Source: Chthoniobacterales bacterium
GTDB taxonomy: Bacteria > Verrucomicrobiota > Verrucomicrobiia > Chthoniobacterales > JAFAMB01
Direction of reading: 5' to 3'
Assembly: GCA_035710445.1 (NCBI GenBank)
Contig: DASTDH010000160.1
Location: forward strand, 1-40,176
DNA length: 40,176 bases
Shown here: piece after piece, positions 1-24,955 of the stretch
Layout: the number at the start of each line of letters is the position of its first letter
Numbering within the stretch: the first letter of the stretch is position 1
Made by a program: the position numbers and the translations under genes
The notes under the pieces: model-generated
Told to the model about the DNA's origin: nothing
Seen by the model: only the letters and a program-made list of their open reading frames with translations
Database searches by the model: none

Positions 1-251
1 CACCCCATGAATGTCTTCTGGTGGTCGATGCTACCACCGGCAGCAACGCTTTGGTACAGGCCAAAGAGTTTCGGGAAGCGATTGGCTTGAGTGGCTTGGT
101 GGTGACCAAACTGGATGGCTCCGGCAAAGGAGGGATAGTCATCGCGATCCAGAACGAACTTGGGATACCGCCGCGATTTGTCGGAACTGGAGAAAGACTT
201 GAGGATTTCGCCTATTTCAACAAGGAGGATTTTGTCCAAAATCTGCTCTAG
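1..251 (+). CDS. ftsY: Signal recognition particle receptor FtsY, C-terminal end only (5' part lies upstream of the window)
   Basis: The frame is open from the window edge (codons from nt 3: PHECLLVVDATTGSN...). It carries SRP-GTPase G4/G5 motifs (TKLDGSGKGG, VGTGERLEDF). The protein ends directly after the NG domain with no Ffh M-domain. The 'M' at nt 21 in the ORF track is an internal GTG. Confidence 0.85.
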   Translation, partial: PHECLLVVDATTGSNALVQAKEFREAIGLSGLVVTKLDGSGKGGIVIAIQNELGIPPRFVGTGERLEDFAYFNKEDFVQNLL

Positions 252-1660
252 CCGGTCGATTCTTTCAATTCGTCTTTGGTTTCATTCTCGGGCAAAGGGT
301 GCTCCCGTTTGAAGTGGAGCTGAAGAATTCGTCGTCCGTCAGTCTGCGTGATTGTGACGAGGTAACCTTCAACCCGCACTTGCTCTCCCTGCCGTGGCAG
401 GTGCCCAAGCAGTTGCACGACGTAACCACCGATAGTGCTGACGTCCGAGGTCTCTAGCTCCAGATCAGCTAACTCCTGAAGTTCATACAGGTTTAGCTGT
501 CCTTGAACGACAAATTCCTCGTCGCTGAGCCGGACGAATTCGCGCGCCTGCTCCTGGTCAAATTCATCTTTGATCTCACCGACTAGCTCGCCCAATACAT
601 CGTCCAAAGTAACGATGCCGACGGCCCCGCCGTATTCGTCTACCACCACGGCAAAATGCGCCCGTTTGGTCAGAAAAGCTTTGAGCAGTTTTTCTAGCGG
701 CATGAATTCCGGCACCGGCATTAAGTCGCGCTTCACGCTGAGCAGATCCGGTTTCGGCTTTTTCATTTCTTGCATCAGATCTTTGACGTGAATCAGCCCG
801 ATGGTGTTATCCAAATGGCCTTGCACTAAAGGAAACCGAGTGTGTCCAGATTCGAAGGCGACCTGCAAATTCGTCTCGAAGGAATCTTGAACGTCCAAGT
901 AAATGACATCGCCGCGCGGGGTCATGATGTCCCGCACGACGCGTCGTCGAAAATCAAGCGCATTGATCAGCAACTCCTTGCTTAACGGTGTGACCGCGGC
1001 TTCCGAGTCACTTTCGGTCAGGATGACTCTCAACTCTTCCTCGCTGTGGCTGAGCTCATGCTGAGCCACCGGATTGACGCGAAAAATCACTTTCAGCACA
1101 AACCGGGCGGAGACCTGCAAAAACCAGATCGCCGGGCGGAAAATTGTATAGAAAAGATGCAAAGGTGCGACCAACAGCAAACTCGCACCCAAAGATTTGC
1201 GGATCGCCAAAGTCTTGGGCGTCAACTCGCCCAAAACGATATGGAGATACGTGATCAGTGAGAAGCCGATTGCAAACGAGATGCCGCTAATGACGGCCGG
1301 TGAACTCACACCGACGCGGAGCAATAACGGTTGCAGCAGCTGAGCTACATACGGTTCGCCGATCCAGCCTAGTCCCAAGCTGGATAAAGTAATGCCCAGT
1401 TGGGTGGCCGAGAGATAAGCATCGAGATTGGAAATGACATGTCGAACGAACCCGGCCCGCTTGTTACCTTCCTCTTCCAGAGCATCAAGCTGACTCGAAC
1501 GTACCTTGACCAAGGCAAATTCCGAGGCGACAAAAAAACCGTTCAAAAGAACCAGCGCCAGGATGACTAAGGCGTTCAGAATCACGACGCTGGGGGACGC
1601 AAATTCCACCTGGACATCAAGCAAGTCTGACCCTGTACTGACCAGAGAACCAATTGTCAT
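248..1660 (-). CDS. CNNM/CorC-HlyC family transporter (DUF21 membrane domain, CBS pair, CorC_HlyC C-terminal domain)
   Basis: N-terminal TM block with NGFFVASEFALVKVR (DUF21). CBS pair region VRDIMTPRGDVIYLD...IGLIHVKDL. C-terminal GGYVVQLLGHLPRQGEQVRVEGYLVTI (transporter-associated domain). Start placed at ATG 1660 (MTIGSL...); the longest ORF reaches 1723. Confidence 0.85.
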   Translation of the reverse strand: MTIGSLVSTGSDLLDVQVEFASPSVVILNALVILALVLLNGFFVASEFALVKVRSSQLDALEEEGNKRAGFVRHVISNLDAYLSATQLGITLSSLGLGWIGEPYVAQLLQPLLLRVGVSSPAVISGISFAIGFSLITYLHIVLGELTPKTLAIRKSLGASLLLVAPLHLFYTIFRPAIWFLQVSARFVLKVIFRVNPVAQHELSHSEEELRVILTESDSEAAVTPLSKELLINALDFRRRVVRDIMTPRGDVIYLDVQDSFETNLQVAFESGHTRFPLVQGHLDNTIGLIHVKDLMQEMKKPKPDLLSVKRDLMPVPEFMPLEKLLKAFLTKRAHFAVVVDEYGGAVGIVTLDDVLGELVGEIKDEFDQEQAREFVRLSDEEFVVQGQLNLYELQELADLELETSDVSTIGGYVVQLLGHLPRQGEQVRVEGYLVTITQTDGRRILQLHFKREHPLPENETKDELKESTG

Positions 1661-1924
1661 CAAAACTGTCTGCACCCTCCTCAGCACGACCCTGAGACCG
1701 CGATCCCAGCGTAATCCCAGCAAATCGACAGAGTCTTGAAGTAACAGATCCGAACCAGATCCGATAGTTCAAAAACCTGGGCTGGCTAACCTGGTATGTT
1801 TTATCCGGCCAATAGGAGACGATGCACCAAGCATCATATTTGTCGACTCGCCGATCGAGAAAGCTTGCTCAAAGAAGCGACCGCTCCGAGCCAGAATCTG
1901 CTCCGGTGCCCGAGAAACGCGAGA

Positions 1925-2194
1925 TCACCAACTCGACTTCGTAACCCCGGGAATCAGCCCCTGGGACGCATATTCGCGAAACGCGATTCGTGACAGACGA
2001 AAGCGCCGGATGAAACTACGCCGACGACCGCTCTGCTCACAACGGTTAACCAGGCGAGTGGGGCTGGCATCGCGCGGAAGCTGGGCAAGGCCCTCGTAGT
2101 CGCCCTTGGCCTTCAACTCGGCCCGAAGTGCGGCATACTTCTGTACGGTCTTCTGCTTGCGCTTATTCCTTTCGATCCAAGCTTTCTTCGCCAT
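1925..2194 (-). CDS. rpsN: 30S ribosomal protein S14, long non-zinc (C-minus) form, 89 aa
   Basis: [28 protein letters not shown]...[40 protein letters not shown] is a full-length S14. It has a single Cys, so no CxxC...CxxC zinc ribbon. Start set at the MAKK ATG (2194), not the upstream ATG at 2224. Confidence 0.9.
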
Positions 2195-2242
2195 AAAAGA
2201 GCAAGGAAAGTAACGGGAATTCACCGGCTTGCAACGGAAAAG

Positions 2243-2631: not shown

Positions 2632-5031
2632 TCACAGCGTCTCATTCCAGAATTGGCGAAAGGCGTGACTCCAGTTCCGGTCCTGCACGCGTTCGCGGGC
2701 TCGTTGCGCCATCTTTTGCCGGAGATCCTGGTCAAGAACGAGCCGGCGCACCGCCCTGGCAAAATCTTCGGCGTCATGAGAGCGAGTCACGAGCCCGTCC
2801 ACTCCATCCTCTACCAGCTCGTGCGGTCCGCCTTGATCGGAAACAACGCAAGGCAGACCTGCCGCCTGCGCCTCGATGACCACATTTCCAAAAGTATCAG
2901 TCGTACTGGGGAAGACAAAGATATCGCTTGAGGCGTACGCGGTCGCTAGTTCCCTCCCTTTCAAGTAGCCGGTGTAGCATGCCTCTGGAGCGATCTCCAT
3001 CAGCTCCTTGAGATAGGGACCGTCGCCTACTACTAATAGTCGCACCGCCAATCCTTCCTGGCGAAGGAGCCGAAGCGCTTCCACCGCAACGTTGAGATTC
3101 TTTTCCTTGGAAATCCGGCCAACGTAAAGCAACCCAATATCTTCCGCCTCCTTGCCAAATTGAGTCCAGAACTTCGTACTGCGTAGTTCAGGGTTGAACT
3201 GGAGTTGATCCAATCCGCGCGGAAAGATTTTGAGTTTTTCCGGAGCGATTCCGCGATCGATCCAACGCTGGCGATAGTGCTCCGAATTGACGTAAACGAG
3301 ATCGAGCTGGGAGTAGAACCAGTGCATAAAGTTCCAAGCCAGCGTCTCCATGTAATTGTCCTGGGTCAGGATCCGAACGTATTGGGGAAAGTCGGTATGG
3401 TAAATGCCGGTGGTCTTGAGATCGAGCATCTTCCCGGCCAATAGCGCGGTCAATCCAACGGGTCCGGGGGTGCTAATGATTAACTCGGTAAACCGCTCGC
3501 GCTGAATATAGTCGATCATATGCAGGACCGGCGGGAAACTGAGTTTCTGCAGCTCGTACTCCGGAAGTTCGAATTCGCCGATCGGGGCAAAGTTCTTGAT
3601 CGGGATATCGGCCAGACTGATCTGCTGACGTGAGGTCACAACGATCAGGTCGGCCCCGCATTCCAAACCAGCTGCCGTCATCTTGCGAATCGTGGTGGTT
3701 ACTCCATTGACATCCTCGAGAGTATCCGTGAACCACGCGCGTCTGGTATTTTGGAGGACGTCCGGTACGAAATTTACGGTGCCGACGCAGATATCAGTCA
3801 ATCGACGACGAGAAGGGGCTTGGCTATGAAAGCCGTAAAAATATGGACCGAGCAACATCCCCATCGGCAGAAGGGCGCTGAGCGTTTGCATGGCCTCCAC
3901 CACGTTACCGCCGGTTATCTGTTGAACAAATTTGTCGAAGAAACGAAACCCGAGCTGGTTGAAGATTAAGGCAACCAGCAGGAACGCTCGCCTTTCCGGC
4001 TCCTTCACTCCTTCGGTTTCCCGAGCCAATTGTGCCTGGACGTTGGCGTTGCCAAAATAATTCGCCAGCTCCGGCCAAATGGAAAGATTAGAGGGCCTCG
4101 CCAGCTCGAAGATCTTACCGGAGAGGATGCCGCTGAACATGAGGCCAATCTTTTCCCCGAGGCTGAATTGAGTCGGATTCTTTCCCTCCATGAAGCGGGA
4201 AAACACTACTTCGAGGAAATCGAGGTTGGGACTGACCGCGGAAAACTTAGCTTTGGCAAATTGGTAGGTCGTATTGTACAGGCCGTGTGCTATCGCGAGC
4301 GGGGTACCGCCAGGGCCACGGACTACGCAATCGCCGTGCTCGATGTATCGAAAGAATTCCGCCACGTTCTCGCTGGTGGGTGCTTCGGTGTAAGCCGATG
4401 CAGGAAAAATGCCGGCGTGATCGTCTGAGCCACCAATCAGGATCTTGCGCCATGGTTCTTTGTGGGTCGGGGTTAATTTCTGTCGATCCGAGAATTTCTC
4501 GATCAGTTCGGGAGTAAGCGATCGAAAAACAAACCGCGCGACTTCGCTGAGCAGAGAGTCACGGAGCCCGTTTACTCCTTCGAAGTGCCTGAAAAGCAAA
4601 ACCAACTTTTGAACATGGTCAGCCGTTAATCGTCGGTCTTTGTCGTAAAACGGATGAGCGACGGCGTGAACGATTCCTCGATCGGCCAGATAGGCCCGCA
4701 ACTCGTAAATATTCCGTCGTACTTGTTGGATCTCCCGGTGCTCGACTTCCGTAATATTCCAGACCAGCACATGGACGCCGACCTGGTCCTCGGGAAACTC
4801 CGCCGCAACCTCACAGCTAACGAAAGTCTCTGGCTGATCGGCTATCTCCAGGCAACCATCGATTCGGTTGTGATCGGTGAATGTAACAAAAGACATCCCC
4901 TTTTCCCGCAATCGCTTGTACAGGCTGCGCGGATCGGAATAACTATCGGGAAATTCGAAACGCCGAAACAGCCACTCGACAGAGCGATCACTGAAACGTG
5001 AGTGCAGATGCAAATCAACTTTCGCAGCCAT
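2632..5031 (-). CDS. PHP-domain phosphoesterase fused to a family 4 (GT-B, Glycos_transf_1) glycosyltransferase, 799 aa
   Basis: N-terminus has VDLHLHSRFSDRS...TFTDHN...GGSDDHAG, the PHP metal-binding His/Asp motifs. The central part is hydrophobic or amphipathic (AFLLVALIFNQLGFRFF, LSALLPMGMLLGPYFYGF). C-terminus has WFTDTLEDVNGVTTTI...LLYVGRISKEKN...FVFPSTTDTFGNVVIEAQAAGLPCVVSDQGGPHELVEDGVDG, a GT4 E-x7-E type motif. Confidence 0.85.
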   Translation of the reverse strand: MAAKVDLHLHSRFSDRSVEWLFRRFEFPDSYSDPRSLYKRLREKGMSFVTFTDHNRIDGCLEIADQPETFVSCEVAAEFPEDQVGVHVLVWNITEVEHREIQQVRRNIYELRAYLADRGIVHAVAHPFYDKDRRLTADHVQKLVLLFRHFEGVNGLRDSLLSEVARFVFRSLTPELIEKFSDRQKLTPTHKEPWRKILIGGSDDHAGIFPASAYTEAPTSENVAEFFRYIEHGDCVVRGPGGTPLAIAHGLYNTTYQFAKAKFSAVSPNLDFLEVVFSRFMEGKNPTQFSLGEKIGLMFSGILSGKIFELARPSNLSIWPELANYFGNANVQAQLARETEGVKEPERRAFLLVALIFNQLGFRFFDKFVQQITGGNVVEAMQTLSALLPMGMLLGPYFYGFHSQAPSRRRLTDICVGTVNFVPDVLQNTRRAWFTDTLEDVNGVTTTIRKMTAAGLECGADLIVVTSRQQISLADIPIKNFAPIGEFELPEYELQKLSFPPVLHMIDYIQRERFTELIISTPGPVGLTALLAGKMLDLKTTGIYHTDFPQYVRILTQDNYMETLAWNFMHWFYSQLDLVYVNSEHYRQRWIDRGIAPEKLKIFPRGLDQLQFNPELRSTKFWTQFGKEAEDIGLLYVGRISKEKNLNVAVEALRLLRQEGLAVRLLVVGDGPYLKELMEIAPEACYTGYLKGRELATAYASSDIFVFPSTTDTFGNVVIEAQAAGLPCVVSDQGGPHELVEDGVDGLVTRSHDAEDFARAVRRLVLDQDLRQKMAQRARERVQDRNWSHAFRQFWNETL

Positions 5032-5055
5032 GCCTGAATTCGCCCGCAGCGACGC

Positions 5056-5808
5056 CTAAGATTCGGTTGAATCGAGATGGTTAGCAATGAACTTCTCGTA
5101 GGTCAACGGCCGGCGATCTTCTAACGCGGAGCCGAGCAGACTTTTCACCTGAGCCCAAACCATTGGGATCTCTCGATCGGTTGGATGGATCGCAATCCGG
5201 AGCAGGGGCCGCTCCCGCAAGCGAGAGCTTAGGCCATGGTTCCAAGCCAAACTGACTACCCGACGCCAGGAAGACCGGGTACTCCAAACTAATGAGCGAG
5301 AGACATAACGATGCAGGCCCTCAAAAACATCGACCGAGCTGACCGTCGTTATATAGCGAAAGCCGACATGTCGCACGGCCGCTTCTGCCTCAAAACCGAG
5401 TAGCCAGGCCGGCGCCACAAATCCGGAAATTGGTCTCTGCAAAAACTCCAGATCGGTCAGACCGCGGCGCAATCGCCGAGACGCTTCGGATCGATCCAGA
5501 TCGTAGAATTCTCCTTCTCCAGCAGTGTAAACCTGGTTGGTGAACTTTACGATCCCGGCATCGGTGTCCTTGGGACTTCGAGCGTGAAAATAACCATGCA
5601 AAATTGGCTCATGACCTTCATTCACCTTCGCTTTCAGCCATCCCCGAAAATCTTCAGATTCCGTGACCGGAGCTCGCTCATGGTGATTGGGAATTATCAG
5701 AAGCGACGTTATTGGAACGCCGAGCTCCCGCAAATCGTCCAAAATTCGAGCGCAACTTGCTTGGGTTAGCGGGGAGACATCATGGATGGAAACGACGAGG
5801 TTCCGCAT
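5056..5808 (-). CDS. DUF2334 family protein (polysaccharide-deacetylase-like fold)
   Basis: MRNLVVSIHDVSPLTQASCARILDDLRELGVPITSLLIIPNHH...GHEPILHGYFH matches my recollection of the DUF2334 N-terminal signature (IHDVSP...HGY.H). Overlaps the upstream Lnt-like gene by 29 nt and lies 24 nt upstream of the PHP::GT4 start. Confidence 0.6.
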   Translation of the reverse strand: MRNLVVSIHDVSPLTQASCARILDDLRELGVPITSLLIIPNHHERAPVTESEDFRGWLKAKVNEGHEPILHGYFHARSPKDTDAGIVKFTNQVYTAGEGEFYDLDRSEASRRLRRGLTDLEFLQRPISGFVAPAWLLGFEAEAAVRHVGFRYITTVSSVDVFEGLHRYVSRSLVWSTRSSWRRVVSLAWNHGLSSRLRERPLLRIAIHPTDREIPMVWAQVKSLLGSALEDRRPLTYEKFIANHLDSTES

Positions 5809-7279
5809 AAAACTTCTTCAAGCCTTCACTCAAAGCTAAAAACAGCGCTAACATACCCATGGCAATCGGGAACCAATCGCCATGGGCAGCGTAATAGGAA
5901 GAATCAACCCCAACCGGTGGATCGATTTCCCCTACGTTCGCTCCTTCGATCTCCGGATCTGCTGAAGCGGTCAACCGTCCGGAGCTAGCCATGAGGATCG
6001 CTCCCGCTCGACGCGAGTTGAACACAATTGGTCGACCGAGCGCAACCGCCCAGGCGCGGACATTTTGTTTTAGTTGCTCTTCCTCAGCAGCGACCGCAGC
6101 CGGTTGATCAACGAGTACCACGAAACATTGAATTTGTTTCTGGACGGCGGCCCGCAATCTCTCCAGCGAGCCGGCATCATTCGCCAAAAAAGGAAGAATG
6201 GAGGCGTCCTTACAGGTGATGGGCTGATCGTTGCGTAAACGCTGATCGGCAATCAGCTGAAAAAGCGGATGCGATGCGAAAGCAAATACGCTTCGGACCG
6301 ATCCAGGGGCGAAGATATTGTATCCAGTGAGAGGCGCTTCGGGCGAAGCAGCTGTCCCGGCAATCAGCGTGATGCTCTGTCCGAGCGAGGCCTTGCTCAA
6401 AACTTGGTAATCACCGCTGTGCAATTGGGTTCGGCGCCACACAACCAAATCGCAGTGGGTAGCTGGAGCAACGAGTGACAGATCGGTCAAATGGTTGAGA
6501 TCGGTCTCCGAAGAAGAAACGATACAAACCTTGAGCCCCTTCGGCTCTGACGCAGATCGCAAGGACCAAAAGCCGGCCACTGCGACCAGGAGCAGCACGG
6601 CTAAGGTTGCGGTGACATCGAAGCGTCCCGCCCAATTCATGCGTCCAGGTTGGAGAATCAAACGCCTGATGTTGGCTAGAATGATCGTATTCGCGAACAC
6701 CACGATAAAGGTTAGCCCGCTGAGACCGACAACTTTGGTGAGTTGAAGCAACGCCAGATTGCCGGCGACCGGCAATCCCGCTTGATTCCAAATTGGCAAA
6801 ATAAAACCTCGCAGCCACTCCAGACCGATCCAGGCGGAGGCAACCAGGGCCGCGAGACGGAGGTGTGCTCCCGAACCAATCCACGCGTCGGTTGAGCGCC
6901 CTGGAGCAACCAGGATTGGTTCAAGCGAACCCTTCTTTCCGGTTTTTCCCTTAGAAAACTCTGGAAGGACAGCAAATCGCCCAATCAGCCAGGCCCAAAC
7001 CGCTCCTGCGACGGCCAAGGATCCGACATTTTGGGCTAACTCATTCCACCGGGTCTCCACTCCCAGCCAGCTAAACGCGATGAAGCCAAAGGTCGCACAA
7101 AACAGCGCCCCTTGAACCAGTAAGACCAACGCGGACCCTCTCAGAATGAGCAAACCGCCCAGTACTGGAACGAAAGCAATCCAAACGAGCCAAGACACGT
7201 TCCACGGTGGAAACGCTAAGCCCAAGAGCACACCGCTTAGCAAGCTCAAGCCGATCTGCCAAATCAGGTGTATTTTCAT
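5780..7279 (-). CDS. Apolipoprotein N-acyltransferase (Lnt)-like membrane protein with a degenerate CN-hydrolase domain
   Basis: N-terminal polytopic domain with LAFPPWNVSWLVWIAFVPVL and LEWLRGFILPIW, compared with E. coli LAFSPYDVW and TEFLRGWVLTGFPW. C-terminal TM (YYAAHGDWFPIAMGMLALFLAL). The periplasmic domain aligns by eye with the Lnt nitrilase domain but without the E-K-C triad (see findings). The ATGA overlaps the DUF4105 gene stop. Confidence 0.7.
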   Translation of the reverse strand: MKIHLIWQIGLSLLSGVLLGLAFPPWNVSWLVWIAFVPVLGGLLILRGSALVLLVQGALFCATFGFIAFSWLGVETRWNELAQNVGSLAVAGAVWAWLIGRFAVLPEFSKGKTGKKGSLEPILVAPGRSTDAWIGSGAHLRLAALVASAWIGLEWLRGFILPIWNQAGLPVAGNLALLQLTKVVGLSGLTFIVVFANTIILANIRRLILQPGRMNWAGRFDVTATLAVLLLVAVAGFWSLRSASEPKGLKVCIVSSSETDLNHLTDLSLVAPATHCDLVVWRRTQLHSGDYQVLSKASLGQSITLIAGTAASPEAPLTGYNIFAPGSVRSVFAFASHPLFQLIADQRLRNDQPITCKDASILPFLANDAGSLERLRAAVQKQIQCFVVLVDQPAAVAAEEEQLKQNVRAWAVALGRPIVFNSRRAGAILMASSGRLTASADPEIEGANVGEIDPPVGVDSSYYAAHGDWFPIAMGMLALFLALSEGLKKFYAEPRRFHP

Positions 7280-8589
7280 CGAGCGCTTGGTCTCACGGGA
7301 GTTCTTCGATAAATCTCAATGGCGCAACGCCAGCCGAGCAAAATTGCGAGGGGATAGATGGCATGATGAAACTGCTGCGGCAACCAGGGCGACGCGATTG
7401 AGAAGAGCGCGATCTCCGCTAAAGCAATCGCGAAGTAGGCGCGCATCCAGTATCGCCCTGATCGCTGGAGGAAAATTAACCCGATGCCGGCCAGGAGATG
7501 AGTTGGCACCAACCAGCCAAGATTCCAATTGTCATAAGCCTCCCAATGTAATGTGTTCGCCGAAAAGAGGACCAGGAATGTTCCAACCCCGCCCAAAATA
7601 AGAAAGACGATTCCGGAGAGGGCAGCCGAAGCCGAGTAGCCTCTGATCATCCAGCAGGCGACCCAAAAAAGTAATAGAACCCAAAGGACGAATTCGGGCC
7701 GAAAATACCATGGTACCGAAGGCAATGGTTGTGGCCGGTAAATCGTCGTCGGTTTGCGACCCAAGGGACCGCTTTCGTTGGAACTTCCCTGAACCGCTCG
7801 TTCAAGATTGAAGGGCAAGAAACAGGCTTCGCGCGGGGTAACCAAACGATCAACCCGCGAACCCAAAAGAAGATAGATACCAAAACGTATCCAGGGGATT
7901 CGGAGAAAGTATGGATCCAGCATTTGGCGGAAGGTAATTTTTCCGATCGACGAATCGGCTACCGGATGGCCCCAAACTTTCTCAAATATGTCTCGTACTC
8001 GAGTTGAGCAGTTATCCAGTATGAAATCGTAACGATAGAAGCGATTTTCCGGCAGCAGATTGGTCTCCAACTCGGAGAACATCGCCTGGCGCTGATCAGC
8101 CTTGAAGTTCAAGATCGATTCAGTAACACCCTGGCCCAAAGTACCCCGCTCATTGATCTCCGCGGTCGATAGTCCCACCGACAACTGGTAAAGCAGATCT
8201 CCGCGAGCAAACTTGAGATAAAAGGCCTCCGTTTCGAAATCAAAAGTCCCAAAATTGTACAGCCGGTCAATCTCTTGGGCGTCATCTCGCACCCGGATCG
8301 AGCTGTGACCAAACGCTGTATAGAGCTCGTCGCCGGGAGAATAGGTAACCAATGAGATCGTCGCGTGATCACTCAAGCGCGGTAGATCGATACGCGGTGT
8401 CGCGAAGCTGACGATGGGAGCAAATACGGCCCAGAATAAAATGAGTGCAGAGTTCAGACGGTTGGCGCAGTTGCAAATGTTCCAGCGACCAGGAAGGACG
8501 CCGGAAGCATCGAGAAGGCCGACAACGCCGGGAACTGGATCTGAGTGCTCTGGTGTCGTGCTTTGGCAACTCCTTGCTGTCTCCATCAA
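7276..8589 (-). CDS. DUF4105 (Lnb_N-like periplasmic domain) protein with a C-terminal multi-pass membrane domain
   Basis: ISLVTYSPGDELYTAFGHSSIRVRDDAQEIDRLYNFGTFDFETEAFYLKFARGDLLY is the DUF4105 signature as I recall it. It is followed by about 5 hydrophobic helices (FVLWVLLLFWVACWMI, IVFLILGGVGTFLVLF, LLAGIGLIFL, FAIALAEIALFSIA, IYPLAILLGW). The exact start is uncertain. Confidence 0.65.
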   Translation of the reverse strand: MMETARSCQSTTPEHSDPVPGVVGLLDASGVLPGRWNICNCANRLNSALILFWAVFAPIVSFATPRIDLPRLSDHATISLVTYSPGDELYTAFGHSSIRVRDDAQEIDRLYNFGTFDFETEAFYLKFARGDLLYQLSVGLSTAEINERGTLGQGVTESILNFKADQRQAMFSELETNLLPENRFYRYDFILDNCSTRVRDIFEKVWGHPVADSSIGKITFRQMLDPYFLRIPWIRFGIYLLLGSRVDRLVTPREACFLPFNLERAVQGSSNESGPLGRKPTTIYRPQPLPSVPWYFRPEFVLWVLLLFWVACWMIRGYSASAALSGIVFLILGGVGTFLVLFSANTLHWEAYDNWNLGWLVPTHLLAGIGLIFLQRSGRYWMRAYFAIALAEIALFSIASPWLPQQFHHAIYPLAILLGWRCAIEIYRRTPVRPSAR

Positions 8590-8735: not shown

Positions 8736-10682
8736 CTACCCTACCCTGGCTTTCGCATCGGCTTGCAACCAATCCCATAAGCGATTCAGCGATCCGCGCA
8801 GTTCGCTCTTTGCTTCGGCAAGCGTTGGTCGAGTTAACCTTTCCCTTTTGCCGAACAAATAGAACTTGATCTTTGGCTCGGTACCGGAAGGACGAACCGC
8901 GATCCTGCGACCGTCCGCTAACGTGAAGATCGTCATCTTCTCGCTCGGAAGCAAATCGCCTTCGCTATCACGGATCGTGCCGGAGGTGAAGTCCTGGATC
9001 TGTGAAACTCCTACTTCGTCGATTTGTTCGGGAGGCGTTCGGTTGTACGAATCGGCTAGCCGCCGGATTTTATCCGCGCCTTCCGCCCCTTCGAACACCA
9101 ATGAGCCGCTCTGTTCAAAATAGTAGCCGTACTCCAAGTAAATCTCGTCTAACAATTCATCCAAAGTGAGACCTTGCGACTTCGCGTACGCCGCGACCTC
9201 AGCGAACATGAGAGCGGCGCCATTGGCGTCTTTGTCTCGAACAAAATCGGCACCGCTGTAGCCGTAGCTCTCTTCTCCGCCGAACACGAAGAAATAGGAA
9301 TGTTCCAACCGAGCTTTGCGCGATTCATCCTCGCTCAACATGCGATACGAATTGCGAATCGATGCCGGCAACGCTTTCTCATATTTCAAAAGTTTGGCGC
9401 CAATATATTTGAACCCAGTGAGCGTTTCTACACAATGGAGTCCGTGGCTTTGCGCGATCGCTTTTTGCAGGTCAGTGGTTACCAGCGTCTTGATGACGAC
9501 AACGTGGTGTTGGTTTTGATCGTTTAGAATTCCAAGCTGCCTTAACGTTCGAGAACGGTAGTAGGTCAACAAAGAGCCAATTTGGTTTCCGGTCAGCAAA
9601 ACTAACTTTCCGGCACGGTTGCGCACTGCTACACCCATTCGGTCACAGTCCGGATCGGTGCCGATAACCAGGTCGGCGGTTTCTTTGCGGGCGAGGTCCA
9701 TCGCCATTAAAAGCGCTTCGGGGTTCTCCGGATTCGGTGACTTGACCGTGGGAAACAAACCATCCTGACGATCCTGTTCCGGTACCGTCAACACGTTAAC
9801 CCCGATGTCGCGCAACAGCGGCACCGAGATTACACCGCCGGTCCCGTGGATGGGCGAAAAAACCACCTTGAGATCTCTCTGCTGCGCCACTACCGCCGGT
9901 TGCAAGATCAGCGAACGTAATCTCGCTTTGTAGATCTCATCGAAGTCCGAGCCAAGGACCACGAGCTTGCCTCTCTGCTCGGTGGCAGTCGGCTTATAGT
10001 CTTCGCTCGTGATCGCATTCACCTGCTCGATAATGGCGCCAGCATGGGGTTCAACCACCTGAGCGCCATCCTCAAAATAAACCTTGTAGCCGTTGTCGTG
10101 CGGAGGATTGTGGCTCGCCGTTATGACGATTCCGGCAGTCGCATTGTTATAACGAACCGCAAAAGAAAGCTCCGGTGTCGATCGCGCCGACTCAAAGAGG
10201 AAAACGTCACAGCCCAACTCGATTGCGACCGTGGCAGCGAGCTCGGCAAATTGGCGGGAAAAAAGCCGGGTATCGTGAGCGATCGCCAGGCTCGGCCTCC
10301 GATCTGAGTGAATAGAAGCCAGGTAGTCTTTCAGGTAATTAACCAGCCCTTGCGTCGCTCGACTCACACTATAAAAGTTCATCGCGTTAGTCCCGACACA
10401 GGGATGCTCAGGCGGCTCAGACTCCAGGTGCGATCCCCGTTCGGCCTGGGTGACTCGATTGCCGATCGACCGGCCACGCAGCCCACCAGTGCCGAACGCA
10501 AGCGCCTTGAAGAAGCGATCGTTCAACTCGGACCAGGCTTTTGCTTCCACCAGCTGGGAAATAGCGAGCGGATAGAGCGGATTGTTCCCGCCAGCTAGCA
10601 ACAGTGCGATGTTGCCAGCGCTGGTTGCTAACAAATGTCCGTCCTCGGCAGCTTGCTCCAAAGTTTCTCGCAAGGCGCTCAT
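8736..10682 (-). CDS. Phosphoglucomutase/phosphomannomutase family phospho-sugar mutase
   Basis: Phosphoserine loop ITASHNPPHDNGYKVY. Metal loop VIGTDPDCDRMGVAV. Sugar-binding FGGEESYGYS. Phosphate-binding RPSGTEPKIKFY. Start set at ATG 10682 (MSALRETLEQ...); an upstream in-frame ATG at 10757 adds 25 odd hydrophobic residues. Confidence 0.85.
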   Translation of the reverse strand: MSALRETLEQAAEDGHLLATSAGNIALLLAGGNNPLYPLAISQLVEAKAWSELNDRFFKALAFGTGGLRGRSIGNRVTQAERGSHLESEPPEHPCVGTNAMNFYSVSRATQGLVNYLKDYLASIHSDRRPSLAIAHDTRLFSRQFAELAATVAIELGCDVFLFESARSTPELSFAVRYNNATAGIVITASHNPPHDNGYKVYFEDGAQVVEPHAGAIIEQVNAITSEDYKPTATEQRGKLVVLGSDFDEIYKARLRSLILQPAVVAQQRDLKVVFSPIHGTGGVISVPLLRDIGVNVLTVPEQDRQDGLFPTVKSPNPENPEALLMAMDLARKETADLVIGTDPDCDRMGVAVRNRAGKLVLLTGNQIGSLLTYYRSRTLRQLGILNDQNQHHVVVIKTLVTTDLQKAIAQSHGLHCVETLTGFKYIGAKLLKYEKALPASIRNSYRMLSEDESRKARLEHSYFFVFGGEESYGYSGADFVRDKDANGAALMFAEVAAYAKSQGLTLDELLDEIYLEYGYYFEQSGSLVFEGAEGADKIRRLADSYNRTPPEQIDEVGVSQIQDFTSGTIRDSEGDLLPSEKMTIFTLADGRRIAVRPSGTEPKIKFYLFGKRERLTRPTLAEAKSELRGSLNRLWDWLQADAKARVG

Positions 10683-10725
10683 ATTCTTTGCATTTATCCT
10701 CGGCTGCGAGGATACGCAAATCAGG

Positions 10726-11622
10726 ATGTACCCCACTGAACAGATCATGAGCGCCATCGCCCAAAGGTCGGGTCTCCGCCAGAGCGGAACGACCGCTTAT
10801 CGCATTGTTGATGGCATCGGTGACGGTCTGCCGGATTGGGTGATTGACGATTTCAATGGAAACTGGCTGATCGGTCTCCAACCAGGACGTCAGGTTCCGA
10901 ACCTGGGCGCCACCCTCGGCTACCATTCTCTCTATGCAAAAGTACTGACTAACGAAAAAAGGAAACCTCCATTCTTTCTCGCCGGTGATCCGGTCATCAT
11001 GAAATTCCTGGTTCAAGAGCGCAGCTTGAATTTTTGGATCGATTTCCAAGCTGGGTACTCGCAAGGGATCTTTCTCGACCAACGCCTTAACCGACAGCGC
11101 GTCAGAGAGATCAGTTACGGGAAGAGCGTACTTAATACATTTGCCTACACCTGCGCTTTCGGTGTTGCTGCAGCAGTGGGCGGCGGTTCTACCGTCAATG
11201 TCGACCTTTCACGAGCATACCTGAATTGGGGTCGCGAAAATTATTCAGCCAACGGTATCGACGATCAAAAGCACGAGTTTATCTATGGAGATGTATTCGA
11301 CTGGCTCAAGCGGTTCGCAAAAAAGGGACAACATTTCGATCTGATCATTTTAGATCCGCCCACATTTTCACGGGATCGGAATGGACGGGTTTTTCGAGCC
11401 GAAACTGACTATGGCGAGCTGCTCCAATTGACACTCTCTGTTAGCTCGAAAGACAGCCAACTGCTTTGCTGCACGAATTCTCACCGCCTTCCCCGCGCCG
11501 GCTTCGAAAAGATTCTGCGAGCCTGCCTGCCTAAGTCTGCCGCGATGGTTGACCTGGGGATGCCGGAAGATTTTCCCGGCAGCGATCATTTGAAGTCCTT
11601 CTGGATACAACGAAGTGGCTGA
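10726..11622 (+). CDS. Class I SAM-dependent methyltransferase, RlmI/RlmK-like (no PUA domain)
   Basis: VLNTFAYTCAFGVAAAVGGGSTVNVDLSRAYLNWGRENY...FDLIILDPPTFSR is the Methyltrans_SAM/RlmI-type core, including the DPPxF motif. Start is ATG 10726 or 10747. The TTG at 10582 in the ORF track would overlap the divergent mutase gene. Confidence 0.7.
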   Translation: MYPTEQIMSAIAQRSGLRQSGTTAYRIVDGIGDGLPDWVIDDFNGNWLIGLQPGRQVPNLGATLGYHSLYAKVLTNEKRKPPFFLAGDPVIMKFLVQERSLNFWIDFQAGYSQGIFLDQRLNRQRVREISYGKSVLNTFAYTCAFGVAAAVGGGSTVNVDLSRAYLNWGRENYSANGIDDQKHEFIYGDVFDWLKRFAKKGQHFDLIILDPPTFSRDRNGRVFRAETDYGELLQLTLSVSSKDSQLLCCTNSHRLPRAGFEKILRACLPKSAAMVDLGMPEDFPGSDHLKSFWIQRSG

Positions 11623-11683
11623 AGTTTCGGTTGAACTCCGCCACCGGACTGCGTTAGATCTAACGCGGTTTAAGACCCCACTC

Positions 11684-11875
11684 ATGATCCGCTTCGTTTG
11701 CTCTTGCCTCGCTCTTACCATCTTAGGCCTCACCGGTTGCGATAATCGTACCCAAGAAAACCGGCGCTGGGAAACGATCGCCAAGAATCAGCAGTCAGGG
11801 CGGGCAACCCAACGTTGGCAAGAGGCGGCGGATCCCTGGAGCAACGACGAGCACCACAGCGGCGTCGCCTGGTGA
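11684..11875 (+). CDS. Small putative lipoprotein, 63 aa
   Basis: MIRFVCSCLALTILGLTGC: signal peptide with lipobox L-T-G-C. A hairpin + T-run terminator follows 15 nt after the stop. No homology recognised. Confidence 0.4.
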   Translation: MIRFVCSCLALTILGLTGCDNRTQENRRWETIAKNQQSGRATQRWQEAADPWSNDEHHSGVAW

Positions 11876-11889
11876 TGAGAGGGGTTACA

Positions 11890-11937
11890 GGTTGCGTGTC
11901 GGGGCGTGATCGGTGATGCCCGTCGCAACCGTTTTTC
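11890..11937 (+). terminator. Rho-independent terminator candidate
   Basis: GGTTGCG (11890-11896) pairs perfectly with CGCAACC (11924-11930). An inner CGGG/CCCG extension adds to the stem. GTTTTTC follows at 11931-11937. Confidence 0.5.
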
Positions 11938-11970
11938 TAGCCGCATCTACTCAGCCAAAATAGCAAGCCG

Positions 11971-12204
11971 CTAGCCATTTTGGGGCTTGGCGGTCGTTCC
12001 GCCGGCAGGCCCTCGATCGAGCCTGACTATTTCCGTTCGGGCTGGCGCCTGGCGGGGCGATTCGTTTTTGCCAAGCCTTAAGGAAAGGCAGCTACTCAAA
12101 AAGAGCGATCCAGCTAACAATAAAGCGCATCTTGCGAATCGACTTCTGATAGCAAATGTTGGAATGGCGGTCAGCGAAGGCACAAGTAGAGAGAGAGTAT
12201 TCAT
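11971..12204 (-). CDS. Small putative lipoprotein, 77 aa
   Basis: RSRFARCALLLAGSLFLSSC is a basic n-region, hydrophobic core and lipobox L-S-S-C. The mature part is short and Pro/Gly/Arg-rich. No homology recognised and the start is uncertain. Confidence 0.3.
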   Translation of the reverse strand: MNTLSLLVPSLTAIPTFAIRSRFARCALLLAGSLFLSSCLSLRLGKNESPRQAPARTEIVRLDRGPAGGTTAKPQNG

Positions 12205-12339
12205 AATACTTAAGCCAGAATGTCTATTGGACTGTAAATCCTTCGATCGTATTCGGATATAACGGTCCAGAAGGATGTAAAGCAGACGAATGGCAGGCGA
12301 AAAAGTTCGGCACCGCCCGGGTGGTTGCTTCTCTTCACG

Positions 12340-12795
12340 CTACTGAACCCGCCGAGCATACCGAAAAATCCGGTAGTCGGATGTCTCCCGGATCTGTTCC
12401 ACAGCCACGAACTTTGATTGGTATTCCGGAAAATAGATGTCGCCTGGATACTCCACCTTCAGCTCCGTAATCAACAGCTCGTCGCATCGGTCGAGTAGTT
12501 GTCGATAGATTTCGGCACCACCGATCACATAGACCTCTTCCCGATAGTCGGTGGGATCAAACTGGGAGAGATCGCGAATCATTTCTGCTCCCTCCCAGGT
12601 CTGACTTCGACTTACAATCAAATTTCGCCTACCTGGAAGCAGTCTTCCGATCGAGAGATGGGTCTTGCTTCCCATCAAAACACAATGTCCCATCGTGACT
12701 TCTCTGAACCACTTTTGTTCTCCAGGGATCTTCCAAGGAATCGAATTTCCGCGGCCAATCACACGGCTCGGAGTCATCGCGGCGATGGCCTTCAC
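12340..12795 (-). CDS. folA: Dihydrofolate reductase
   Basis: (V->M)KAIAAMTPSRVIGRGNSIPWKIPGEQKWFREVTMGHCVLMGSKTHLSIGRLLPGRRNLIVSR...VYVIGGAEIYRQLL is a canonical DHFR. Homology begins at GTG 12795, preceded by GAGGGCGAGAACCGG. The TTG at 12954 would add about 53 non-homologous residues. Confidence 0.85.
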   Translation of the reverse strand: MKAIAAMTPSRVIGRGNSIPWKIPGEQKWFREVTMGHCVLMGSKTHLSIGRLLPGRRNLIVSRSQTWEGAEMIRDLSQFDPTDYREEVYVIGGAEIYRQLLDRCDELLITELKVEYPGDIYFPEYQSKFVAVEQIRETSDYRIFRYARRVQ

Positions 12796-12823
12796 CCGGT
12801 TCTCGCCCTCCGGCTCAAACGGA

Positions 12824-12851
12824 ATAGCCAATAGCCGATACTCGATAGCCA
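12824..12851 (-). repeat. Four tandem heptamers (plus strand ATAGCCA ATAGCCG ATACTCG ATAGCCA) in the thyA-folA spacer
   Basis: Read directly. The array ends 29 nt upstream of the proposed folA GTG start. On the coding strand it reads TGGCTAT CGAGTAT CGGCTAT TGGCTAT. Confidence 0.5.
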
Positions 12852-12943
12852 ACTGTTTCGCCGGATCACCGCCATAACAACGACCGCGTTGAGCCCTCTC
12901 GACCTCTTGGCTCCTAAATTCTAGATTCGGGTTTCTGATCCAC

Positions 12944-13738
12944 TCACACCGCAATCGGCGCCTTGATCGCTGGATAAGGATCGTATTTCAGCAATTCAAT
13001 ATCCTCGTATCGAAAGTCTTCAAGGCGCTCGGGAATCCGTTGAAACAGCACCCGGGGAAGCGGTCTCGGTGACCGGCTGAGTTGCTCCCGGACCTGGTCG
13101 AGGTGGTTCTTATAGATGTGCAGGTCGCCAAAGGTGTGGACAAAATCGCCCGGTTCTAGACCGCACACTGCTGCCACCATGTGTGTCAGCAGCGCGTAAG
13201 ATGCGATATTGAAAGGCACCCCAAGAAAAAGATCGGCGCTGCGCTGATAGAGCTGACAGCTCAATTGGCCCTCCAGCACGTAGAACTGAAAGAGGGCATG
13301 GCATGGCGGTAATGCCATCTCGCTTAGCTCACCCGGATTCCAGGCCGAAACGATCAAGCGACGACTCGCCGGATTAGTTCGAATCATTTCGACGACCTGA
13401 GCGATTTGGTCGACTGATTTCCCGCCGGCGATCCGCCAATCTCGCCATTGCGCGCCGTAAACCCGACCGAGATCTCCTTTTTCGTCCGCCCACTCGTTCC
13501 AAATTGTTACGTCGTTATCGGTAAGGAATCGAATATTCGTCTCTCCTCGCAAGAACCAAAGGAGTTCGTAAACGATCGATTTAAAATGGACTTTTTTGGT
13601 CGTGATCAGGGGAAATCCCCGACGCAAATCGAGCCGCACTTGCGCGCCAAAGTATGATATAGTCCCAGTTCCAGTACGGTCATCCTTGGAGCGCCCTTTT
13701 TCTAAGACAAGACGGAGCAACTGATGATATTCCTGCAC
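12944..13738 (-). CDS. thyA: Thymidylate synthase (ThyA type), 264 aa
   Basis: (V->M)[30 protein letters not shown] aligns residue-for-residue with the E. coli ThyA N-terminus [26 protein letters not shown]. Catalytic [12 protein letters not shown] is present, followed by [18 protein letters not shown]. The GTG at 13738 gives the canonical 264 aa (alternative ATG at 13786). The ORF-track start at 14101 overlaps folE2 antisense. Confidence 0.9.
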
Positions 13739-13801
13739 AGTCTGTAAAGTATAATGAAGGGGAAAAATTTCGTCCCGCGTCTTCATGACAACACGAAATC
13801 T

Positions 13802-14596
13802 ATGGAACAGCAAACTACTTTGATCGATACGCAGAATCTTCCTGATCACCGAGAAGTAGCCATCGACCGGGTGGGGGTAAAGAAGCTGCGTTTTCCGATC
13901 CTGGTCCGGGACAAAGCGCACACCTCTCAGCATACCGTGGCAACGGTGAGTTTGACCGTCGATCTGCCTCACCATTTCAAGGGCACTCACATGAGTCGCT
14001 TCATCGAAGTGCTCAATCATCATGGAACCGTTATTCACGTCGACAATATCAAGGTGATCCTGCGGGAACTGCAGTCGCGACTGGACGCCGAGGCGGCTCA
14101 TGTCGAATTCGAATTCCCCTACTTCATTGAGAAAAAAGCTCCAGTAACCGGCGCATCAGGATTACTGGAATATGCAGTGCGATTTAATGCCAGCGCGCAC
14201 CAGAGCGATTCCGAATTCGAAGTGACGGTCATGGTTCCAGTTACCACCCTCTGCCCGTGCTCTAAGGCGATCAGCAAGCACGGTGCACACAATCAACGGA
14301 GCCTGGTGACCTTTGCGGTGCGGTTCAGTAGCCCAATCTGGATCGAGGACCTGGTGCGCATGGTTGAGACATCGGCCAGTGCGGAACTTTTCAGCTTATT
14401 GAAGCGTCCTGACGAAAAGGCCGTCACCGAGCGCGCCTACGATCATCCGGTTTTTGTCGAGGATCTGGTTCGTAACATCGCGGTCAAAGCCAATGCTGAG
14501 CCACGGATTGTCTGGTATCGGGTCGAAGCGGAGAACTACGAGTCGATCCACAACCACAACGCCTACGCGATGATCGAGGGTCAGCCGCCGAGCTGA
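13802..14596 (+). CDS. folE2: GTP cyclohydrolase IB (FolE2/MptA family)
   Basis: [25 protein letters not shown]...[13 protein letters not shown]...[20 protein letters not shown] are the FolE2 (DUF198) signature motifs. Start set at ATG 13802 (MEQQTT...), 63 nt from the divergent thyA start. Confidence 0.85.
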
Positions 14597-14753
14597 TAAA
14601 CAGCGCTGTCGGGATGCTCTGAGCCGGCGAGTGGCAGAAGAAATGGTAGAGCTCTTGGGCGAACATCTCTGGCGTAAATACGACGCTATCGAGGCGAACT
14701 TCGATCGGGCATAGATCTTGTGAGGGAAGAAATAAGTCCTGAATCTCGGGAAA

Positions 14754-14848
14754 TGCATGCAAAATAGATCAGGCATATCCTTTGCGTAAGCTCTTGATTA
14801 TAAGAAACTAAGGATTCTCTAAAAATTGAGATTGCCTTTTTGCATGCA
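14754..14848. promoter_or_regulatory. Two copies of the 8-bp palindrome TGCATGCA forming an 11-bp inverted repeat (TGCATGCAAAA / TTTTGCATGCA), centres 87 bp apart
   Basis: Read directly at 14754-14764 and 14838-14848. They sit inside the AT-richer 433-bp non-coding region upstream of the 12-gene plus-strand block. Function is inferred only from position. Confidence 0.2.
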
Positions 14849-15029
14849 ATCAGTAGATACTCGCATACACGCTGTCTCCGCAAAAGGTCCTACTCCCTCA
14901 AGCAGGATATTTACGGATCTCGCCCAACCCCGATCCTTCCAAGAAATTAGCGACCTGAGGCCAGACCGATCTGACCCTTGGCCGATGTGATTGACACTAA
15001 CAAATGCATTCGTCTGACCTATTGATCAT

Positions 15030-17605: not shown

Positions 17606-17612
17606 GTAGGTT

Positions 17613-18737: not shown

Positions 18738-18741
18738 AAGT

Positions 18742-19665: not shown

Positions 19666-19695
19666 ACGAACGAAGAGGAAATCAACAGCATTACT

Positions 19696-20787: not shown

Positions 20788-20808
20788 AACCGCGTGACGG
20801 GAGCGTGT

Positions 20809-22212: not shown

Positions 22213-22270
22213 AAACGTTCTTCGCGCTACCGCAACTGGAAAAATTGATCCCCCAATAGTTGGCTTCCAA

Positions 22271-23377: not shown

Positions 23378-23477
23378 TCCAACCACGGAGTTTAGGGCGG
23401 CACCAGGCGCCGTCCCACATTGAACAAAGCATTTGATGTATGATATTGCTGCCTTCGATGGCGGCAGGAGCAACACG

Positions 23478-24743: not shown

Positions 24744-24955
24744 GTGTTGGCGAGATGCAGTTCGCGACGTGCGACGGTATCGCTTCGGCTGGATTCCAGC
24801 GACCGGGTAGATCGCGCACGACATGGTCAACGCCTGACTTTTTGAATGTGTTAGTTCAACAACTGATGATACGATCCTGAGCCATTGCGGACACTGACTG
24901 ACCAAACCAGTCTCGGTTCAGTCGGATCGCAGACACAGGGATCGAAGCGACCACC

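Follow-up and report, generated by a model that had tools for sequence, protein, structure and literature searches.

We analyzed a 40,176-nucleotide (nt) stretch of DNA from a Chthoniobacterales bacterium of the phylum Verrucomicrobiota (GenBank assembly GCA_035710445.1, contig DASTDH010000160.1, positions 1 to 40,176), hereafter called the window, which carries on its minus strand a compact set of four genes. In the order of transcription, these encode a DUF4105 protein of the Lnb type, a protein related to the lipoprotein N-acyltransferase Lnt, a DUF2334 protein, and a fusion of a PHP-like phosphoesterase with a GT4 glycosyltransferase (PHP::GT4), and they are preceded by a gene of the PGM/PMM family. 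The four open reading frames (ORFs) and their junctions had been proposed in a reading made from the letters of the DNA alone (the sequence-only reading), and all of these coordinates were reproduced exactly on base-level reading. The features are as follows.

7276..8589, minus strand: Lnb-type (DUF4105) membrane acyltransferase, ORF of 437 amino acids (aa), with the Pfam domains Lnb_N and 5TMH_Lnb
5780..7279, minus strand: Lnt-like protein judged catalytically dead (pseudo-Lnt), 499 aa, with the Pfam domain LNT_N and the catalytic triad lost
5056..5808, minus strand: DUF2334 (COG3233) putative deacetylase, GpgD-like, 250 aa, matching Pfam DUF2334 and NCBIfam NF053788
2632..5031, minus strand: PHP::GT4 three-part fusion, 799 aa, with Pfam GT4 domains and a sub-threshold PHP match
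4282-5031, minus strand: divergent PHP-type phosphoesterase part of the fusion, about residues 1-250
3742-4281, minus strand: conserved helical linker of the fusion, about residues 251-430
2632-3741, minus strand: GpgS-like GT4 part of the fusion, about residues 431-799
7276..7279, minus strand: ATGA stop/start overlap between the Lnb and Lnt-like genes, read directly from the bases
5780..5808, minus strand: 29-nt overlap between the Lnt-like and DUF2334 genes, read directly from the bases
5032-5055, minus strand: 24-nt spacer between the DUF2334 and PHP::GT4 genes, read directly from the bases
8736..10757, minus strand: PGM/PMM-family phosphohexomutase (PGM), with Pfam PGM_PMM domains I-IV, 146 nt from the Lnb gene

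For the Lnb gene, the ATG at 8586 is the most likely start, because the Lnb orthologs are 436 aa or shorter, and the start of the mutase is most likely Met26 (10682), as judged from mutase orthologs of 648 aa. A promoter and terminator scan of the window, uncalibrated for Verrucomicrobiota, gave no excess over shuffled sequence.

The conservation of this arrangement was assessed in two scans, the loci of which are designated by L numbers below. Scanning a single genome for each species with the alignment of the Lnt-like family gave 31 loci, nearly all of them labelled Chthoniobacterales or Verrucomicrobiota metagenome-assembled genomes and derived from soil, and a metagenome scan seeded with DUF2334 added a further 80. 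The extended order PGM, Lnb, Lnt-like, DUF2334, PHP::GT4, rpsN and CNNM was found in 22 genome loci and two metagenome contigs, and the gene order of the operon recurred in these 22 genome loci and in approximately 28 metagenome loci. Among the 80 metagenome loci, all those extending far enough had PHP::GT4 as the gene next downstream of DUF2334. Exact copies of the window proteins were present on short metagenome contigs only. At the deepest split of the group sharing the order PGM, Lnb, Lnt-like, DUF2334 and PHP::GT4, identity to the window protein was about 76% for PHP::GT4, 67% for PGM, 54% for DUF2334, 50% for Lnb and 41% for the Lnt-like protein. The junctions were conserved as well: the Lnb-to-Lnt junction had a median of -4 nt and was overlapping in 31 of 46 loci, the Lnt-to-DUF2334 junction, the tightest and most conserved of the cluster, was -29 nt in approximately 50 of 56 loci, and the DUF2334-to-GT4 junction had a median of 21 nt (range -17 to 1324). 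With both order and overlaps recurring in more than 50 Chthoniobacterales loci, the proposal that the four genes form a translationally coupled envelope or lipid operon with a conserved neighborhood was borne out, and a chance coupling does not account for it. Searches for homologs of the PHP domain and of Lnb were uninformative on distribution outside the order, since the best 120 matches listed for each all lay within Chthoniobacterales.

The assignment of the first protein to the DUF4105/Lnb family was confirmed, given that both the periplasmic DUF4105 domain PF13387 (Lnb_N, 72.4 bits against a cut-off of 22.2) and the C-terminal five-helix membrane domain PF25221 (5TMH_Lnb, 67.7 bits against 25.2) passed their Pfam cut-offs. 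The protein begins with a signal anchor, continues with a periplasmic NlpC/P60-like domain and ends in a domain of five transmembrane (TM) helices, with hydrophobic segments at residues 300-403. Lnb is the lipoprotein N-acyltransferase of Bacteroides, and the B. theta enzyme has a triad composed of N66, H49 and C148, the last of which is essential (PMC11573676). The predicted catalytic residues of the window protein, H95 (8305-8307), N112 (8254-8256) and C194 (8008-8010), have a spacing (+17, +99) identical to that of H49, N66 and C148, and were invariant in 45 of 45 orthologs. The ratio of nonsynonymous to synonymous substitution rates (dN/dS) of the gene was 0.04-0.14. Considering the invariance of the triad together with its spacing, the window Lnb is likely to be active as an enzyme.

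The second protein, which the sequence-only reading had described as Lnt-like, justified that description in its membrane half and not in its catalytic half. While the membrane domain PF20154 (LNT_N) passed its Pfam cut-off (51 bits against 27.1), the Pfam search gave no match to CN_hydrolase (PF00795), for which Lnts of neighboring lineages score 60-95 bits, and the match to TIGR00546 failed at 31 bits against a cut-off of 132.9. To read the catalytic residues, the window family was aligned with the canonical Chthoniobacterales Lnts (L029-L034, L037) and anchored to E. coli Lnt through a PDB alignment showing E267, K335 and C387. All three catalytic positions were found to be altered in the window family: the WPE motif is replaced by WR[RCSW] with loss of the catalytic Glu (W281-R282-R283 in the window protein, 6431-6439), the Lys-bearing YxKxHLVPFGE segment is deleted, and LICFED is replaced by PFLAND or PLxNWE, neither of which contains a Cys. 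The triad state was read in 74 Lnt ORFs, of which 56 were dead and 18 canonical with zero intermediates, the ORFs of L006 and L032 being classed by the Glu motif alone as they end before the Lys and Cys positions. Judged from these residues, the window Lnt-like protein is catalytically dead and not an active Lnt-type acyltransferase.

Despite the loss of its triad, the dead Lnt is not a decaying pseudogene, a possibility that was discarded because the gene is under purifying selection, its ORF is intact in more than 50 loci, and the Lnt fold was recovered from the protein. Compared with four relatives, dN/dS was 0.10-0.15 overall, and the values were similar for the TM domain (0.09-0.17) and the C-terminal, formerly catalytic domain (0.075-0.14). 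When a low-confidence AlphaFold2 model was searched with Foldseek, the top 24 matches were Lnt structures (E ~1e-11, TM-score ~0.45), followed by nitrilase-superfamily enzymes; a profile of the dead-Lnt family gave no match at E 1 or below among PDB sequences. An exhaustive search of 1.8 billion cluster representatives with a hidden Markov model (HMM) revealed only about ten full-length Lnt-like relatives, below which the scores fell sharply to true Lnts matching mainly the membrane domain, and in a neighbor-joining tree the 47 dead-Lnt sequences included were monophyletic on a long stem. On the evidence of these searches, the dead-Lnt family is small and lineage-restricted. One candidate for a Rosetta-stone fusion of Lnb and Lnt, P0043 (L006 2963-5696, 671 aa, with Lnb_N and LNT_N), was rejected as a frameshift artefact: the underlying metagenome assembly is poor, and its reading frame shifts near 4003-4008 and 5104-5118.

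The two proteins were strictly correlated in their occurrence. A Lnb gene lies immediately upstream in all of the dead-Lnt loci for which upstream sequence was available (at least 46), and no Lnb gene was found within 8-10 kb in any of the 18 canonical-Lnt loci. In distant Chthoniobacterales loci (L029-L034, L037), a canonical Lnt comprising LNT_N and CN_hydrolase is situated directly downstream of PGM, and the full order PGM, canonical Lnt, DUF2334, PHP::GT4 was observed in L080, L085, L093 and L115, with partial versions in L091, L092, L094, L097 and L103. The presence of a canonical Lnt in the same position across these sister loci suggests that the ancestral operon had a working Lnt, the layout in related lineages presumably having been PGM, canonical Lnt, DUF2334 and PHP::GT4. 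In one clade, a Lnb gene would have been inserted ahead of Lnt and the Lnt would have lost its chemistry. Exchange of DUF4105 and Lnt genes in equivalent gene neighborhoods has been described (PLoS Biol 2026, PMC12994826); the DUF2334, PHP::GT4 and Chthoniobacterales context was not found in the text or the examined supplements of that study, and its supplements mention neither DUF2334 nor Chthoniobacter. A scan for the motif F[IVL][VA]VFAN[TAV]I, carried by every canonical Chthoniobacterales Lnt examined, gave no second canonical Lnt: each dead-Lnt genome, among them one with a 5.04-Mb contig, yielded a single locus, which constitutes weak evidence against a second copy.

The remaining two genes of the operon were shown to resemble a recently described glycolipid pathway. 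In P. aeruginosa, the products of gpgSDF are a GT4 enzyme (GpgS), a COG3233 deacetylase (GpgD) and a flippase (GpgF), and the GpgS/GpgD pair, described in 2025, makes glucosaminyl-phosphatidylglycerol (PMC12713373). The family calls of the window proteins were upheld by Pfam, the DUF2334 protein passing PF10096 (77.5 bits against a cut-off of 26) and the GT4 domain passing Glycos_transf_1 (128.7 bits) and Glyco_transf_4 (60 bits) at residues ~440-790. The DUF2334 protein matched NF053788, the N-acetylglucosamine (GlcNAc)-phosphatidylglycerol deacetylase model, end to end (184.3 bits, model positions 2-240 of 241), and the top NCBIfam family of the GT4 domain was NF053787, the GlcNAc-phosphatidylglycerol synthase (132.8 bits, model positions 90-351 of 361), followed by the next at 88 bits. 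The DUF2334 gene is directly upstream of the GT4 gene, and both products were devoid of TM helices and signal peptides and thus predicted to be cytoplasmic. Purifying selection was pronounced for DUF2334 (dN/dS 0.03-0.07) and for PHP::GT4 (0.025-0.05), the latter being the most conserved protein of the cluster. A search of the PDB with the DUF2334 profile found no meaningful structure. The earlier statement that the gene combination maps to no named pathway did not hold, in view of the resemblance of DUF2334 and GT4 to GpgD and GpgS (PMC12713373) and of the identity of DUF4105 as Lnb (PMC11573676). The working hypothesis of the sequence-only reading, that the operon builds or remodels a glycolipid, is reasonable for two of the genes, those for DUF2334 and GT4.

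The N-terminal part of PHP::GT4 is more divergent. The PHP motifs DLHxHS, TDH, HAVAHP and GGSDDHG were invariant in 15 orthologs, the invariant residues being D6-L7-H8-x-H10, T52-D53-H54, H122/H126 and G201-S-D203-D204-H205. The only PDB profile match of the family was the PHP phosphoesterase 3e0f, weak in score (E 0.27) with collinear motif segments, and PHP_C was exceeded in ortholog L099 only (21.6 bits against 21.3). The conserved His/Asp motifs and the weak profile match lend the PHP call of the sequence-only reading some support that is not conclusive, the Pfam score discussed below being sub-threshold.

As to the mutase, its best NCBIfam match was the archaeal-type GlmM at 139 bits, below the cut-off of 439. 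The spacer between the mutase and Lnb genes varied from 109 to 1001 nt across loci, and the mutase is therefore a conserved upstream neighbor that is not translationally coupled to the operon. PGM and Lnt remain neighbors in L029-L034 and L037, where the DUF2334-GT4 pair lies at another site or is missing from the locus, and DUF2334-GT4 pairs without PGM were found in L099, L105, L109 and L116. Since the mutase tracks Lnt and not GT4, its suggested role as supplier of the sugar-1-phosphate precursor found no support in synteny and was dropped. DUF2334 directly follows a canonical Lnt with gaps of approximately 2-90 nt in L080, L085, L091-L094, L097, L103 and L115, and in the Udaeobacter-type genomes (L034, L099, L105, L109, L116) the DUF2334-PHP::GT4 pair stands free among unrelated housekeeping genes with PGM-Lnt located elsewhere. 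In L028, a 4-kb insertion (11461-15628) separates the dead Lnt and DUF2334; it carries on the opposite strand a lipid-related set of genes for a fatty-acid hydroxylase family protein, a radical-SAM/DUF3641 protein and a GT2 glycosyltransferase. Two near-identical loci, L035 and L036, from the bin MFD04580.bin.2.110 of a high-GC 'uncultured bacterium', have a canonical Lnt and then DUF2334, with no PHP::GT4 within 10 kb; the Lnt of these loci is long, at 652 aa, its membrane domain carrying large insertions, and genes for a class A penicillin-binding protein and a GH113 protein are located nearby.

Based on these observations, we propose that the operon consists of two coupled modules, in one of which Lnb took over lipoprotein N-acylation with Lnt persisting as a non-catalytic partner, while the other would be responsible for GpgSD-like aminoglycolipid synthesis. 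We assign this reading a probability of about 0.6. It builds upon the anatomy of the genes, the state of the catalytic residues, the selection measured, synteny and the strict correlation between Lnb and the dead Lnt, and from these we infer each biochemical activity, the identity of the substrates, the partnership of Lnb with Lnt and the reason for which the modules are coupled. In the first module, Lnb would acylate the alpha-amino group of the diacylglyceryl-cysteine with a chain taken from a phospholipid, and the dead Lnt would contribute to substrate binding or act as a scaffold in the membrane. In the second, the GpgS-like GT4 would transfer a sugar, presumably GlcNAc drawn from UDP-GlcNAc, onto a phosphatidylglycerol-type lipid at the cytoplasmic face, the fused PHP phosphoesterase would take off a phosphate, and the GpgD-like DUF2334 protein would deacetylate the GlcNAc-lipid to give a cationic glucosamine (GlcN)-lipid. 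MshA and sucrose-phosphate synthase typically act on a phosphorylated acceptor, with a phosphatase acting next. By the same logic, the PHP fusion suggests a phosphorylated acceptor here, one plausible candidate being phosphatidylglycerol phosphate.

Several points weigh against this proposal. The window Lnb matched NCBIfam NF051878 with 195.7 bits (model positions 21-383 of 394), below the equivalog cut-off of 550, and the DUF2334 protein (184 against 280) and the GT4 domain (133 against 480) likewise remained below the equivalog cut-offs of NF053788 and NF053787; with the Lnb, GpgS-like and GpgD-like scores so far under their cut-offs, the substrates could differ. The PHP domain PF02811 reached 15-19 bits in the window protein and two orthologs (17-19 bits in the window protein alone) against a gathering score of 26.4, and the confidence of the AlphaFold2 models was low for both PHP::GT4 and the dead Lnt, with predicted local distance difference test (pLDDT) values of 57 and 56, respectively. 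Neither the window operon nor the regions flanking L034, L036, L093 and L099 contained a flippase of the GpgF (UPF0104/MprF) type, which leaves unexplained the route by which a GlcN-lipid made at the cytoplasmic face would reach the periplasmic leaflet. Furthermore, the -29 nt coupling of Lnt to DUF2334 is not accounted for by a view of two independent modules. The strict correlation, finally, applies to the loci, as whole genomes were not searched for a divergent second Lnt, nor canonical-Lnt genomes for a distant Lnb.

That same coupling invites an alternative, a more specific form of the idea in the sequence-only reading, namely that all four proteins serve one integrated pathway, in which PHP::GT4 and DUF2334 make a lipid-linked GlcN that, after flipping, Lnb N-acylates or uses as donor or acceptor. 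We consider this unlikely, as we do its finer detail, in which the dead Lnt is an acceptor-binding subunit or flippase and the product an N-acyl aminoglycolipid or a modified lipoprotein anchor. Such a pathway would accord with the Lnt-DUF2334 junction being the most conserved of the cluster, and with canonical Lnts also standing directly before DUF2334, even in L035 and L036 where PHP::GT4 is missing from the neighborhood; however, the adjacent Lnt in canonical-Lnt genomes is presumably the housekeeping enzyme. Chemically, the amine freed by a deacetylase would suit Lnt and Lnb, each of which is an amine N-acyltransferase, but the DUF2334 and PHP::GT4 proteins are predicted to be cytoplasmic, whereas the catalytic domains of Lnt and Lnb are periplasmic. 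A polytopic membrane protein of the window operon stands where gpgSDF has its flippase GpgF, and the Corynebacterineae provide a precedent for the coupling of Lnt to a glycosyltransferase in the Ppm1/Ppm2 operon, where an Lnt domain is combined with a polyprenyl-phosphate-mannose synthase. Against a single pathway, the free-standing DUF2334-PHP::GT4 pair of the Udaeobacter-type genomes, with PGM-Lnt elsewhere, and the insertion in L028 both indicate that the modules can be separated.

Two other explanations each concern one half of the operon. The Lnb-like protein could be an NlpC/P60 enzyme that remodels lipids in another way, for example as a phospholipase or transacylase; this clade would then have lost N-acylation and carry diacyl lipoproteins, and the dead Lnt would have been recruited for an unrelated role. 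The NCBIfam score of Lnb far under the equivalog cut-off (196 against 550) and its low identity to Bacteroides Lnb would be compatible with such an enzyme, and the permuted NlpC/P60 clade containing DUF4105 does include phospholipase and acyltransferase toxins (PMC12994826). Yet the two-domain architecture of Lnb and the exact spacing of its triad are retained, in-situ displacement between Lnt and DUF4105 is described in the literature (PMC12994826), and the gain of Lnb and the catalytic loss of Lnt strictly co-occur at the same position in translationally coupled genes, for which a functional take-over is the simplest explanation. We thus regard the different-enzyme alternative as improbable. 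Even less credence is given to the idea that PHP::GT4 and DUF2334 make a soluble GlcN-glycoside in the style of MshA/phosphatase/MshB or BshA/BshB, their adjacency to lipoprotein genes being inherited synteny. The closest solved structures of the GT4 domain by sequence were indeed BshA, sucrose-phosphate synthase, PimA and MshA, the NCBIfam models of MshA and BshA scored 82 bits each, and the synthase-then-phosphatase order typical of MshA and sucrose-phosphate synthase would account for the PHP fusion. Nevertheless, GpgS was the better NCBIfam match (133 against 82 bits), DUF2334 matches GpgD over its full length, no cysteine ligase was present nearby in the window or in the examined flanks, and the operon partners are membrane lipid enzymes. 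In addition, the deacetylases MshB and BshB belong to the LmbE family and not to DUF2334. Taken together, the balance of evidence favors the take-over of lipoprotein N-acylation by Lnb next to a GpgSD-like aminoglycolipid module.

Outside the operon, the window contains several further features. A 58-aa ORF (MKACKIRVIAYLAFGIMNLVGFIYLVG...) with one hydrophobic helix is located at 2243-2419 on the minus strand between PHP::GT4 and rpsN; it showed 57-72% identity in the closest relatives (L007-L010, L038, L040, L042), was weak in L044, and a 58-aa gene was also called at this position in L004. The rpsN gene itself (1925-2224, minus strand, 99 aa) encodes a stand-alone S14 outside the ribosomal operon and adjoins a CNNM/CorC-type metal transporter gene (248-1723, minus strand), the rpsN-CNNM pair being found downstream of the operon in approximately 20 loci reaching that far; this rpsN may encode an alternative, metal-regulated S14 paralog. 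On the other side, the mutase is flanked by a divergent gene for an S-adenosylmethionine (SAM)-dependent methyltransferase (PF10672, 10582-11622, plus strand) and by genes for dihydrofolate reductase and thymidylate synthase (12340-14101, minus strand), and this flank is syntenic in L004 and L005. A plus-strand cluster at 15030-28842 comprises AtzD/TrzD-type ring-opening amidohydrolases (19696-20787 and 22004-23377), an amidase (20794-22212), a family III CoA-transferase (23433-24743) and two ABC uptake systems of the Bmp/PnrA and NMT1 types, and looks like a locus for the degradation of cyanuric-acid or barbiturate-type N-heterocycles. Chemotaxis-like signalling genes occupy 29710-39392 on the minus strand, encoding a hybrid histidine kinase with Hpt (29710-32073), CheB (32160-33194), a CheA-like kinase with CheW and receiver domains (33191-35476) and CheR (36174-37412).

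Relatives of each part of the operon, namely Lnb, Lnt, GpgS and GpgD, were known already, as was the displacement between Lnt and DUF4105. As far as the literature searched shows, four aspects deduced here from sequence appear to be new: a putative Lnb-type enzyme in Verrucomicrobiota, the strict pairing of Lnb with a conserved Lnt that is catalytically dead, a GpgSD-like module, universal in these lineages, with a PHP fusion and no flippase, and the recurrent coupling of this module to a lipoprotein N-acyltransferase gene. Lipoprotein N-acylation is essential in most diderms and a drug target, and the solutions adopted by different phyla (Lnt, Lnb, LnsAB, Lit and others) are still emerging. 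The clade described here would extend the range of Lnb outside Bacteroidota and appears to capture a hand-over from Lnt to Lnb in which the displaced enzyme was kept as a conserved pseudoenzyme, which makes non-catalytic roles of Lnt, such as substrate binding, partner docking and scaffolding, directly testable. The GT4 and DUF2334 genes point to a conserved variant of the GlcN-phosphatidylglycerol pathway, with a phosphoesterase fusion and without a flippase, in abundant soil bacteria including the Udaeobacter-type lineages, and the variant predicts a cationic glycolipid in these Verrucomicrobiota; a search for literature on the polar lipids of Chthoniobacterales yielded nothing usable. The recurrent coupling to Lnt also raises the question of whether the head-group chemistry of membrane lipids and lipoprotein acylation are coordinated. 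A bolder and rather doubtful extension is that the dead Lnt is an obligate non-catalytic subunit of a two-component N-acylation machinery, in which it binds the substrate and Lnb is the catalyst, and that it also ties lipoprotein maturation physically to the synthesis of a glucosamine-phospholipid. This lipid would serve as preferred acyl donor or itself be N-acylated in the periplasm, with the Lnt membrane domain helping in its presentation or flipping. If true, this would represent a previously unknown link between lipoprotein acylation and aminoglycolipids and a natural case of an essential enzyme turned into a scaffold.

The operon shares features with several known systems. Like the canonical Lnts of E. 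coli and P. aeruginosa (5N6H, 5N6M and others), the dead Lnt has an LNT_N domain and a nitrilase-like C-terminal fold, and it is the positional ortholog of the canonical Lnt in sister lineages; it differs in having neither the Glu, the Lys segment nor the Cys, and in matching neither the CN_hydrolase HMM nor PDB sequences. In the Ppm1/Ppm2 system, an Lnt-type membrane protein is likewise genetically coupled to a glycosyltransferase, but the latter is a GT2 enzyme, the sugar is carried by polyprenyl-phosphate and the Lnt is active, whereas the window operon combines GT4 and a deacetylase with an inactive Lnt. In both gpgSDF (PMC12713373) and the analogous hexSDF of C. difficile, GT4 is encoded beside a DUF2334/COG3233 deacetylase and both proteins are predicted to be cytoplasmic, as in the window, where the GpgS and GpgD models were the best NCBIfam matches of GT4 and DUF2334. 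The window operon departs from gpgSDF in its reversed gene order with the deacetylase first, in the N-terminal PHP-like domain and helical linker of GT4 (together ~430 residues), in its scores under the equivalog cut-offs, in the absence of a GpgF/UPF0104 flippase, and in being linked to Lnt and Lnb genes.

With Bacteroides Lnb, the window Lnb shares the periplasmic DUF4105/NlpC-P60-like domain followed by five TM helices and the identically spaced Asn-His-Cys triad. It differs in coming from Verrucomicrobiota and not from Bacteroidota, in scoring far under the equivalog cut-off (196 against 550), and in being always paired and translationally coupled with a catalytically dead Lnt. As in the in-situ displacement of DUF4105 and Lnt (PMC12994826), Lnb-type and Lnt-type genes occupy equivalent positions in related genomes; here, however, the displaced Lnt was not eliminated and persists beside Lnb in the form of a conserved pseudoenzyme. 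LnsA of S. aureus, an NlpC/P60 enzyme, depends on the polytopic protein LnsB, in which the family motif residues are dispensable (PMC13559823). Although the partners are unrelated, that of LnsA belonging to the CPBP family and the putative partner in the window being derived from Lnt, the combination of an NlpC/P60-superfamily catalyst with a polytopic membrane partner is the very arrangement that we propose for Lnb and the dead Lnt.

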